Part shown: piece by piece, positions 1 through 32,550 of the stretch
Position numbering within the stretch: position 1 is the first letter of the stretch
How the letters are laid out: every line of letters starts with the position of its first letter
DNA from: Eledone cirrhosa
Lineage: Eukaryota
DNA length: 64,000 bases
Assembly (NCBI GenBank): GCA_964016885.1
Contig: OZ024743.1
Location: forward strand, 194,556,001-194,620,000
Reading direction: 5' to 3'
Translations under genes and position numbers: made by a program
Notes under the pieces: generated by a model
What the model saw: only the letters and a program-made list of their open reading frames with translations
Told to the model about the DNA's origin: nothing
The model's database searches: none

Positions 1-1748
1 ATATATATATATAATATAAATATATATATATAATATAAATATATATATATATATATATATATACATATAATATATATATATATATATATATATATATACA
101 TATAATATATATATATAATATAAATATATATATATAATATAAATATATATATATATATATAATATAAATATATAATATATATATATATATATATATATAT
201 ATAATATAAATATATATATATATATATATATATATAATATAAATATATATATATATATATATATAATATAAATATATATATATATATATATAATATAAAT
301 ATATATATATATATATATATAATATAAATATATATATATATATATATATATATAATATAAATATATATATATATATATATATATATAATATAAATATATA
401 TATATATAATATAAATATATATATATATATATATATATAATATAAATATATATATATATAATATAAATATATATATATATATATATATAATATAAATATA
501 TATATATATATATAATATAAATATATATATATATATATATACATATAATATAAATATATATATATATATATATATATATATATATATACATATAATATAA
601 ATATATATATATATATATATATATAATATAAATATATATATATATATATATAACGAAGGAAATGTGGTAAGGAACCAGGTGGACCATAACGCACCAAAGT
701 ACTCAATACTTGAGGTAGTAGAGTGGGTAATAGGAACCAGTAAGACCCCGACAGCTGAGCTCAAGCCGTTTCGACGGCTAATCCCAGAATTAGCCGTCGA
801 AACGGCTTGAGCTCAGCTGTCGGGGTCTTACTGGTTCCTATATATATATATATATATATAATATAAATATATATATATATATATATAATATAAATATATA
901 TATATATATATATATAAATATATATATATATAATATAAATATATATATATATATATAAATATATATATATATATAATATAAATATATATATATATATATA
1001 TATATATATATATACATATAATATAAATATATATATATATATATATATATACATATAATATATATATATATATATATATATATAATATAAATATATATAT
1101 ATAATATAAATATATATATATATATATATATATATATACATATAATATATATATATATATATATATATATACATATAATATATATATATAATATAAATAT
1201 ATATATATAATATAAATATATATATATATATATAATATAAATATATAATATATATATATATATATATATATATATAATATAAATATATATATATATATAT
1301 ATATATATAATATAAATATATATATATATATATATATAATATAAATATATATATATATATATATAATATAAATATATATATATATATATATATAATATAA
1401 ATATATATATATATATATATATATATAATATAAATATATATATATATATATATATAATATAAATATATATATATATAATATAAATATATATATATATATA
1501 TATATATATAATATAAATATATATATATATAATATAAATATATATATATATATATATATAATATAAATATATATATATATATATATAATATAAATATATA
1601 TATATATATAATATAAATATATATATATATATATATATAATATAAATATATATATATATATATATATAATATAAATATATATATATATATATATATATAT
1701 ATATATATATATATATATATATATATATATATATATATATATATATAT
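1..1748. repeat. Compound (TA)n microsatellite with recurring TAATATAAA interruption (minisatellite-like), interrupted at 653-840
   Basis: Direct reading; the YI-rich ORFs at 761-1863 are artefacts of this repeat. Confidence 0.95.
653..841 (-). mobile_element. PLE-type fold-back remnant: 77-nt tail plus perfect 53-bp inverted repeat containing the 3' half of a hammerhead ribozyme
   Basis: Arms 730-782 and 789-841, loop CCCAGA. The arm reads GAAAC-GGCT-tgagctc-AGCT-GTC (799-821), i.e. hammerhead stem III with a GUC site. Flanked by (TA)n on both sides. Confidence 0.75.
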
Positions 1749-2448
1749 AGAGAGAGAGAGAGAGAGATGTACACAAACATACATATAAAAGGTATATATA
1801 TATATGTACATATATACATAAATACATTTGAATATTTATACACTCACGCAAACAAATAGACAAATGAATATGTGTGTGTGTGTATGTTTAATATACATAT
1901 ATAGCTGAAGTATATGTTAAGCAAGCGCGCGTTTTCAACCTTAACACCACACATCACCACCACATCCAGCAACAGAAAACATTAATACCCGCCAACAATA
2001 ACATTAAACACAATGATGTAAATGGCATCATTTCAAATTAGACTTTAGTATATATTTCGAGATTTTCCTCCTGTGGATGAGTAATGCTCTAAAATTAGAT
2101 GGCATGAGTATAAAGTGTTAAGCTCATAGATCAACATCAATCGGCTATACACTGGTTGTGAATTGAAATGGCATGGAATATGTAAAAAGGAAAATCATTC
2201 GCTATTTATAATATGGAAAACAGTATTGAGAAAGCATGCAGAATAAAACAAGCAAATAAGCGAAAAAGATATAAATCAAGGGAAAAAGAAATGAATATAA
2301 TTAATATAATATAAACTATCAGCAATGAAAGGAGAAAAGCTTAACAGAAACGTTGTTGCGGGTACAATAATAGCTCTTGTTTCAGGAATACCCTGGCTCA
2401 GATAAAGGAGAATTCTTGGACATCTCATGTTGTAAACTATAGGGCTAA

Positions 2449-2952
2449 TTGTGATTTCTAATTTAGGCACAAGACCAGTCATTTTTGTTTCCGTTGTTGG
2501 TTGTGAGAGAGGGGTGGGTCAAAGTCGATTTATATAAACCGTAGTACGTGAGTAGTACTTTATCTTATCGGCCACGGAAAGATGATAAGCAAAGTTAACT
2601 TCGGCAGGATTTGAACTCAAAAGGTAAAGAACAGTGAGTAAATGGTGAGAAACATTTTGTTCGAAACTTTAATGATTCTGCCAATTCACAGCTTTTACTA
2701 TAGGTCGAATAATCCCTGCACTGGATCAATAAATATTGGTTTCTGATTTAGGTACAAAGCCAACAATTTTGGTGGATCGGCAAGTCGATTAAATCGACCG
2801 AGTGAGCGACTGGCACTTTATTTTATCGACCCCATAAGGATAAAAAGTAAAGTTAACCTCGGCAGGATTTGAACTCAGATGGTAAAAAGGCTTGTACTCT
2901 ATGATAGAAAGCATGTTGTCCGTTGCTCCATCGATACTGCCAATCCACCACC
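2449..2952 (-). mobile_element. Two copies of the abundant tRNA-derived SINE with a Meta-like central domain (2449-2692, 2736-2952)
   Basis: Shared consensus ttgtttctactttaggcacaaggcc...tttatcgacccc...aaagttaacctcggc.ggatttgaactcag...ctgccaatccacc; the minus strand gives A-box- and B-box (GAGTTCAAATCC)-like motifs. Confidence 0.85.
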
Positions 2953-4154
2953 CTACTGGATTTCTCTATACCAAAAAAAATTGTATACGTTCAAAGAGAT
3001 GATAGACTGGGAGACTTAGGTACGCCGTTTTAAGGTCAACATGAAAGGAAATATTATACAAATTAAATCACGTTGTTCTCGTAGGGAATATAAATAAAAT
3101 GTTTGGCATGTCAATGAATCTAATCCTGTGTTTACAACAACAAATATGAATTATGAATCAAGCACAATAATTAAAGCATTTAGTGTTAGCATTGTTGTAT
3201 ATACTTAGAAGTCCGGTATGTTGGTCGTAAGTATATAATAGCGGAGAACAGAAGTCAAGATAAAAGCATTTTGGGTTAAAATCATTGTCGTGTTATGTTA
3301 CACGATAATCTATATAGACGCAATCAAGTGAAACTCTAACTCTCTCTCTCTCTATCTATCTATCTCCCCCTCTCTTTCTCTCTCTTCCCCTCTCTCTCTC
3401 CGTCTCTCTCTTTATATATATAAATACAGTATATATAAATATATATATATATATATATATATATATATATATATATATATATATATGTATGTATCTGTAT
3501 GTATATATATATATATATATATATATATATATATATATAATTTAAGTGTTTATACATAAAATGTATATTACCTACAACACACACAACATATATATATATA
3601 TATATATATATATATATATATGTGTGTGTGTGTTTGTGAATTTGTGTGTGTGTGTGTATCTAAGTATACATGTATACAAAAATTACTATTCTTTCATATT
3701 AGCCCCACCTCACATAAAGGTTAAATGTATCAAATTAAACTTACATCAGTACCGGAAATATTAATATAACATAATTTCCGGTATGTCTGACAGCCCAATG
3801 CATCGATATCAATGTTAAACGCGAATACTAAAAGTCTTGCTCAATATCACCATCAGTAAAAAGCTCTTAAAAGACTTCCAAAGAGTTCTCATTGTATTTA
3901 TATAGGAGTCTGAGGCATAGTTACTGTTTATTTAATATTACAATGATTCGTGAGTAATTTTTAGATTGAAAATGTGTTGCATACATCTAAAGATAAATGG
4001 ACAGAAATATACAAAAATAGTCAAATAGTAGTAGGTGGTATATAATCCGGCTATGGATATTATTGCTAGTCAATTGAAGAACGGAAAATAAACACGAATG
4101 ATTCATTAGCGTTGTGAAAATAATAGAGGAGAAACAAATATAAAAGAGTTAAAA

Positions 4155-31885: not shown

Positions 31886-32086
31886 TAGTGAAAGAGTGAA
31901 GAATAACATGGTCGGCTGTACAAAAAGGTTTTATTTACATTATTTATACTGTAAATAAAACCCTTTTTGTACAGCCGACCATGTTATTCTTCACTCTTTC
32001 TCTACTATTACTCCAAGAATGACCTGCATGGGAATTCTCGCAAACTCGCTACCTAACTAATACCTAAAACGATAACTTGTTATCCC
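31886..32086 (+). mobile_element. PLE-type fold-back remnant: ~54-bp inverted repeat plus 82-nt tail
   Basis: Arms 31886-31939 and 31950-32004, AATAAA in the arm, tail 32005-32086, (TA)n on both sides; no ribozyme retained. Confidence 0.7.
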
Positions 32087-32122
32087 ATATATATATATAT
32101 ATATATATATATATATATATAT

Positions 32123-32550
32123 AGGAGGTGAGTTTTATTGTAGTACAATAAAGCAATGCAGATATCGGATAAGAAGCACTCTACAGTTTGTAGGACTGGA
32201 GTATGCATAATATAAGATCAAAAGATGGTTAAAGGAGTACCATGTATTTTATTATGCGCATTTCAAAAACAAACATCATCATGCAATAATATTTGTGTTT
32301 TCATCAGATAAAACAGGAGAACATGATATGAAGGCTAAAAAACACTTGTGGATAGTGCAGTTTTAAATCAACATATCAACATATGTTGATTTAAAACTGC
32401 ACTATCCACAAGTGTTTTTTAGCCTTCATATCATGTTCTCCTGTTTTATCTGATGAAAACACAAATATTATTGCATGATGATGCTTGTTTTTGAAATGCG
32501 CATAATAAAATACATGGATCTCCTTTAACCATCTTTTGATCTTATATTAT
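32123..32550 (-). mobile_element. PLE-type fold-back element: 84-nt tail plus near-perfect 170-bp hairpin with hammerhead
   Basis: Arms 32207-32376 and 32381-32550, 4-nt loop CAAC, (TA)n on both sides. Confidence 0.85.
32442..32512 (+). ncRNA. Minimal type I hammerhead ribozyme (mirror copy at 32245-32315, minus strand)
   Basis: tgttttat-CTGATGA-aaacacaa...ttgttttt-GAAA-T-gcgc-ATA-ataaaata. Confidence 0.8.

Follow-up and report, generated by a model that had tools for sequence, protein, structure and literature searches.

Penelope-like elements are retroelements whose known layout pairs an inverted copy, itself truncated, with a tail on one side only and a hammerhead ribozyme motif; earlier work has described the tail and the inverted arm as well as a pair of start sites of reverse transcription (RT). 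The available text of Craig et al. 2021 (PMC8557442) gives a general tail of 30–40 bp for these elements and says nothing of two ends or of a hairpin. PAc, a Poseidon protein of Anolis, is the only Penelope-like protein assayed according to the available text of Frangieh et al. 2024 (PMC11167929); it is predicted to form a dimer, two internal RT start sites bound its tail in vitro, and lengthening the template at its 3' end left these sites unmoved. Here we describe a 64,000-nucleotide (nt) stretch of the Eledone cirrhosa genome (assembly GCA_964016885.1, contig OZ024743.1, positions 194,556,001 to 194,620,000, forward strand; hereafter the window), animal DNA with abundant TA microsatellites and a putatively cephalopod-like SINE, in which 5'-truncated Penelope-like insertions lie in (TA)n. 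The long tails of these insertions (about 60–90 nt) exceed the 30–40 nt given in the published text and mostly open with a shared small hairpin. We favor, with a probability of about 0.55, a reading in which two coupled RT start sites, flanking a protein-bound hairpin at a lineage-set spacing, would yield the tail.

Inverted pairs were collected across the window by masked self-comparison, arm alignments and a search for local inverted repeats, which in three shuffles of the sequence yielded 1, 6 and 5 matches, none above 45 bits. In all ten measurable elements (Table 1) one inverted arm abuts the simple repeat and the other continues beyond, so that a near site ends the first arm and a far site the second. 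The near site lies 36–53 nt past the hammerhead cut in E2, E7 and E11, and the near arm end sits 0–7 nt ahead of the hairpin. Just one tail was present in each of the eight window pairs with both ends defined, and in six of six marine pairs from outside loci; an insect-type pair (L088, 662–968), read by eye, has a tail on neither side. Exactly one tail per pair with both ends defined implies that the two ends are coupled. The original prediction had placed four long tails with adjoining arms (E1, E2, E6 and E7), and all four were recovered, the start of one moving from 32123 to 32124. Its list of TA-flanked inverted repeats was re-measured; it had omitted E8, and the element at 12557 (E4) proved to have (CT)n at its other flank. 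Four of the ten lengths fall inside the range 77–86 or 77–91 nt (p = 0.054–0.60 over twelve null settings, n = 10), so the length cluster alone is no proof of a class.

The hairpin RCTC…GAGYRCT opens the tails of E1, E2, E7 and E11, 0–7 nt past the arm end; its motif occurs at seven places in the window. The long-tailed elements had been called unrelated. At the level of plain sequence this holds, as only E2/E7 among the six pairs of E1, E2, E6 and E7 beats shuffles (3/500); it fails at the level of structure, where the hammerhead type is shared and the tail-start hairpin recurs in three of the four (E1, E2 and E7), and the tails of E1, E2, E7 and E11 are related at the level of structure by this hairpin. 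A covariance model (R1) was built from 12 hairpins, all from outside the window and ten of them from the genome bin G001 described below, and covers 12 nt past the stem. The top six of its 14 window matches were, in order, E1 (E = 0.0018), 37790 (0.035), E2 (0.12), E7 (0.31), E11 (0.33) and 41068 (0.35), and each match to an E-element lay at the border of arm and tail in the correct orientation. Among the outside hairpins, 96% of stem cells pair, with compensatory changes at two of the seven pairs; the first pair is G-C in 12 of 12, versus A-U in E1, E2 and E7. An alignment with MAFFT that included the window hairpins was poorly registered and was left unused. This small hairpin, with which most of the long tails begin, probably sets the point at which the enzyme starts to copy.

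Table 1. Tailed and related elements of the window. Length ranges reflect TA letters assignable to arm or to target; distances from the hammerhead cut are given to the arm end and to the tail end.
Element	Position	Strand	Tail or extension	Tail-start hairpin	Arms	Hammerhead	Remarks
E1	653..841	-	653-729; 77 nt (to 80)	698-724	730-782 / 789-841	partial; cut ~20 nt inside arm end (cut site by eye)	hairpin insertion in (TA)n
E2	7934..9010	-	7934-8019; 86 nt (to 91)	7995-8017	8017-8437 / 8592-9010 (96%)	full motif, both arms: 8073-8121 minus, 8906-8954 plus; 53 nt to arm end, 139 nt to tail end	
E6	31888..32086	+	32005-32086; 82 nt (78-86)	3' half not found	31888-31943 / 31946-32004	not found	truncated
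E7	32124..32550	-	32124-32206; 83 nt (to 86)	32175-32202	32207-32376 / 32381-32550 (97%)	full motif, both arms: 32253-32307 minus, 32450-32504 plus; 46 nt to arm end, 129 nt to tail end	
E11	36828..37081	-	36828-36891; 57-64 nt	36861-36884		decayed, in arms (by eye); ~36 nt to near end (by eye)	
E3	10855..11332	+	11306-11332; 27-30 nt	not found	inverted; SINE (short interspersed element) interrupting left arm	not found	
E9	35821..36177	-	35821-35863; 43 nt	not found	old inverted pair (82%)		
E10	36252..36811	+	36775-36811; 37 nt	not found	inverted arm and partial tandem, period 258 nt	not found	with tRNA-like sequence
E4	11999..12726	+	one-sided, at 12557; ~170 nt		stop 7 nt past hammerhead	C3U/G8A-type, full motif	atypical; opposite flank (CT)n instead of (TA)n
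E8	35230..35774	-	one-sided; ~275 nt	not found		in extension; cut ~35349, ~119 nt from end	TA-bounded
E11-type tail	41030..41140	+		starts 41080	no adjoining inverted arm		
Further tailed end	37767..37930	-	tail end uncertain	starts 37850			

Next, the fixity of the tail was examined across copies by comparing the E7 tail plus one arm with four sequencing runs, which contributed 4089, 4601, 5094 and 55 records; of the runs considered, X1 and X2 contained only a small share of the words, and X2, X5, X7 and X8 were not among the four. When the loose ends with the best support are taken (231 weaker rows fall outside this list), those on the outer side were 32122 (far) and 32207, 32210 and 32220 (near). 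All three near ends lead into (TA)n, though in the group at 32220 some 15 nt of variant sequence come first; 32207 was supported by 14 and 16 contigs, by 299 reads and by one contig in a second species. The arm-to-tail ratio of summed depth was 2.1 and 2.0 (contig sets X3 and X4, one sample) and 4.0 in the sparse second species, summed depth being different from copy number. Most copies have a G at 32121. E7 is a high-copy family with two fixed ends ~83–86 nt apart, and in this family, the one so compared, no large length variation among copies was found. Elsewhere in the window, an 84-nt insert between two TA runs (57232–57315) has the same first ten letters as the far end of E7 and gave no hairpin match.

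To test the kinship of the tails on outside material, public collections were scanned for hammerheads adjoining (TA)n. In the metagenome scan, 91 of an estimated 4400 loci were listed, selected for a TA run 35–65 nt past the hammerhead core; the genome scan (35 loci) required GCTC and is biased towards the hairpin, a requirement absent from the hammerhead scan of G001. The viral-contig scan gave 16 loci, and no hammerhead passing the pairing filter was among them. Copies of the insect type, whose stem III is CATG, have tails of 30–37 nt, a known class (ends read by eye, from shared motifs). G001 is a genome bin filed as bacterial that holds many contigs of animal-type, host-animal DNA rich in Penelope-like elements, and it gave 48 hammerhead matches versus 2 in the control. 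Its TA-targeting families have two end positions, 32–59 and 104–118 nt past the cut; the hairpin lies 36–61 nt past the cut in 14 of the 48 hammerhead copies, whereas none of the 12 copies from non-TA families has it. Where both ends are present (seven families, read by hand), tails measure 58–69 nt (mean 64, standard deviation 3.6). With R1, 23 of 30 G001 matches reach (TA)n 52–61 nt past the hairpin start, two do so at 67–68 nt and two at 109–125 nt, and three have no TA run.

Hydra-type RT-endonuclease open reading frames (ORFs) lie directly upstream in eight outside loci (L114, L135, L138, L139, L150, L151, L179 and L180), with the DKT motif or 42–65% identity to such proteins; DKT is present in L139, which has the same end layout. 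At L128 (2487–5933), a Hydra-type element that is nearly whole adjoins bacterial genes close to one end of a 491-kb contig from a bacterial genome, probably a chimeric assembly. The proposal that the size classes reflect lineage largely holds, with 30–37 nt in the insect type versus 58–69 nt in the families joined to Hydra-type ORFs. By lineage, tails measure ~30–37 nt in Penelope and Poseidon types, 58–69 nt in the G001 Hydra families, and 57–64 and 77–91 nt in the window. The proposed near-constancy of the tail largely holds as well: length is fixed in the E7 family and narrow across the G001 lineage (the 23 of 30 above), although the cluster of four in ten is not significant by itself. A single class of ~80–85 nt is not supported, since the same hairpin class spans ~55–90 nt and takes in E11, once set aside as a 64-nt outlier. 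The supposed 80–85-nt class would best be read as one branch, long-tailed and of the ACTC type, within a broader class that is putatively Hydra-type.

Penelope-like elements with an endonuclease (EN+) encode an RT and a GIY-YIG endonuclease in one ORF. The window elements are Penelope-like by their layout: all eight defined pairs are inverted 5'-truncated copies with a one-ended tail, and the pseudo-long terminal repeat (pLTR) carries a hammerhead, full in E2, E7 and E4, present in E8 and, by eye, partial or decayed in E1 and E11. The long-tailed ones likely belong to the Hydra lineage, as their non-coding features suggest. Like the Hydra clade as described in the available text of PMC8557442, they target (TA)n, carry a hammerhead with a short palindromic stem III near the 3' end, and end 30–48 or 114–153 nt past the cut. 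In the Hydra clade the RT has DKT and RWK motifs and the endonuclease lacks CCHH. The canonical hammerhead lies 30–50 nt upstream of the near end in Hydra; the distance is 46 nt in E7, 53 nt in E2 and ~36 nt in E11. The tail-start hairpin, found here and not among the published criteria for Hydra, is present in E1, E2, E7 and E11, but in E6 no 3' half was found; in the published data (hand counts, from the portion seen of PMC8557442), three of six new Hydra consensuses end with a GCTC…GAGCACT hairpin plus 50–69 nt, and the other three stop 36–47 nt past the cut, just before the hairpin. Across 24 published families in the same material, cut-to-end distances were 30–48 nt in 10, 114–153 nt in 9, 63–97 nt in 4 and 355 nt in 1, a count that leaves out one family with a 5' listed motif and two without a listed motif. 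Unlike the described Hydra clade, the window has tails of up to 77–91 nt, an A-U first pair and copies without an ORF.

Drosophila virilis Penelope and the Adineta vaga Pen elements (available text of PMC3846280) share with the window the inverted pLTR, the one-sided tail (31 bp in Pen2a_Av) and palindromic inversion junctions, but their tail is a half to a third as long and they do not lie in (TA)n arrays. In the portion of PMC11167929 available, PAc resembles the window in its tail downstream of the hammerhead, two fixed ends, AT-rich target and stem-loop at an RT start site; it differs in its 30–40-nt tail, start sites inside the ORF and an AC-rich stem-loop unlike RCTC…GAGYRCT, and the coupling of two sites in inverted copies is not addressed in the main text. 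A literature search, with subscription papers and Repbase outside its scope, found no account of 55–90-nt tails, of the RCTC…GAGYRCT hairpin or of the rule of one tail per pair. Naiad elements, which have an N-terminal endonuclease, a CxC linker and a DKA motif, target (TA)n and leave an inverted 5'-truncated copy with a 30–40-bp tail and no hammerhead. They differ in this from E1, E2 and E7, which carry hammerheads, those of E2 and E7 being full motifs; the short-tailed E3, E9 and E10 are candidate Naiads, and six short motifs from window tails had no match in the published Naiad consensus file, where line breaks may hide matches.

The ends, the hairpin and the lengths are observed; from them we infer that a protein binds, that it acts as a dimer and that each site is primed. 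The tail would be the stretch that separates two fixed internal RT start sites, one on either side of a conserved RNA hairpin. A Penelope-like protein, acting as a dimer as predicted for PAc (available text of PMC11167929), would dock on the hairpin and nick the (TA)n target on both of its strands; priming would use the near site on one strand and the far site on the other. Joining of the resulting complementary DNAs (cDNAs) at their truncated ends would give an inverted duplicate that has just a single tail. The length of the tail would be an inherited property of the element RNA and the protein rather than a distance from the RNA 3' end. A more specific version is offered tentatively: the tail may be the footprint of a protein dimer on one hairpin, whose two RT centers start on either side at a lineage-set spacing and copy one RNA twice onto both nicked strands, with the ACTC-type families of the window recording a lengthened ruler (~83 versus 64 nt).

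Several observations weigh against two coupled start sites in a Hydra-type element. The fixity of the tail across copies comes from one family, E7, and is affected by the data used, as contigs break at repeat branch points and restriction-site-associated DNA (RAD) reads over-count single loci. The in vitro evidence comes from another clade, that of PAc, for which the available text of PMC11167929 reports no strand preference for either start site, so the rule of one tail per pair is not explained by that alone. A tblastn search with one Neptune-like and three Hydra-type proteins found no reverse transcriptase in the window, and the assignment of E1, E2, E7 and E11 to Hydra therefore rests on non-coding features; a six-frame reading of 13 candidate window regions likewise found no Penelope-like ORF. 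The cut-to-arm distance of E1 is unlike the others. As for the hairpin, the R1 window matches other than E1 are individually weak (E = 0.03–0.35, with rough calibration), E6 was matched neither by R1 (E up to 10) nor by the motif search, and four of the seven stem pairs are invariant across the 12 outside hairpins and so uninformative on structure. G001 shows no enrichment of the motif alone (366 versus 422 in the reversed control), so only the position of the hairpin is informative; on these counts the motif was rejected as a genome-wide marker.

Of the alternatives, a fold-back is the most serious, and we regard it as possible but distinctly less probable than two coupled sites. A cDNA begun at the far site would turn back on itself where it is truncated, and the strand made on the way back would stop, or be cut, just before the hairpin; the arms do stop 0–7 nt before it, a natural stop. 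The near-perfect palindromes of E1, E6 and E7, with loops of 2–10 nt, and the single tail in 14 of 14 pairs agree with such a course, and self-priming has been proposed from junction palindromes (available text of PMC3846280), as has resolution by an endonuclease (available text of PMC8557442). It sits less well with the spacers of 53–214 nt in E2, E4, E8, E9 and E10, or with the 2.6-kb Hydra copy of L139, which stops at the near site and, within the stretch examined, has no partner with a tail; and PAc initiates RT at both tail ends in vitro, which makes a fold-back unneeded (available text of PMC11167929).

In the original prediction, the second priming event was set by a constant distance to the point where the RNA physically ends on its 3' side. 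Tail length is indeed narrow across many G001 families that differ downstream, and the length of the hairpin and that of the remainder tend to offset one another (r = -0.54, p = 0.11, 10 families). However, the start sites of PAc ignore lengthening of the template 3' end (available text of PMC11167929), the near site tracks the hairpin, and the distance from hairpin to end depends on the lineage (52–61 versus 72–84 nt). The tail hairpin also lies in the 5' untranslated region, ahead of the ORF, in L128, whose RNA thus extends past the hairpin, and at the 5' start of the published consensus of Hydra-1_Ajap. Measurement from the RNA 3' end is improbable on these grounds; a ruler may act between the two start sites. 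An accidental grouping of four independent families at 77–91 nt is the least likely of all: the scan statistic, the omission of E8 (~275 nt) from the earlier list and the lack of a hairpin in E6 would allow it, but the hairpin and A-U first pair common to E1, E2 and E7 and the comparably narrow lengths in G001 speak against it. Two coupled start sites are thus favored over fold-back, a 3'-end ruler and chance, in that order.

The remaining features of the window are more varied. The tail of E6 opens with CTATTACTCCA, like E2 and E7 (TACTCCA is common to them); a TA-flanked end at 34510–34580 resembles, by eye, the tail-less arm end of E6, with a GTGAAA start and a AAAGGTTT-ATT stretch in common. 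None of 500 shuffles reached the match score between 41030–41140 and E11. A tail-less copy at 9535–9595 belongs to the same family as the tailed 37767–37930, both with a non-canonical hammerhead-like core. The tRNA-like sequence of E10 is a tRNA-Ser GGA at 36605–36677 (ARAGORN; 52.9 bits with Rfam), and E10 is possibly a tRNA-derived non-autonomous element mobilized by Penelope-like machinery. This tRNA and microsatellite-driven microRNA matches were the only results of an Rfam search of the window, which gave no match to a hammerhead family. At 11988–12006 the inverted arm of E4 ends just past the hammerhead and is followed by a short hammerhead-start repeat and then (CT)n; the spacer of E8 (35598–35680) duplicates its own far end plus microsatellite flank (35180–35246). 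An inverted repeat at 17012–17243 is too decayed for a tail to be measured. On the minus strand, 9719–10160 is a partial tandem with a period of ~321 nt and, by eye, a hammerhead-like motif near 9870–9915; it is bounded by (TA)n at one end and by (CT)n at the other, without an inverted arm by eye. Two decayed non-LTR (long terminal repeat) retrotransposons with reverse transcriptase- or endonuclease-like ORFs (42138–44750 and 58615–63157) are unrelated to the tails.

The results bear on how inverted ends form in Penelope-like elements, the retroelements closest to telomerase. A conserved hairpin whose distance to one of the ends is constant, a single tail per pair and a lineage-specific spacing open the way to a mutational test of two-site priming against fold-back. 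Collectively, these observations correct the working rule of a 30–40-bp tail, and the Hydra consensuses in print seem to combine ends that have a tail with ends that lack one, a mixture that matters for where element boundaries are drawn when repeat libraries are made for invertebrate genomes rich in (TA)n.

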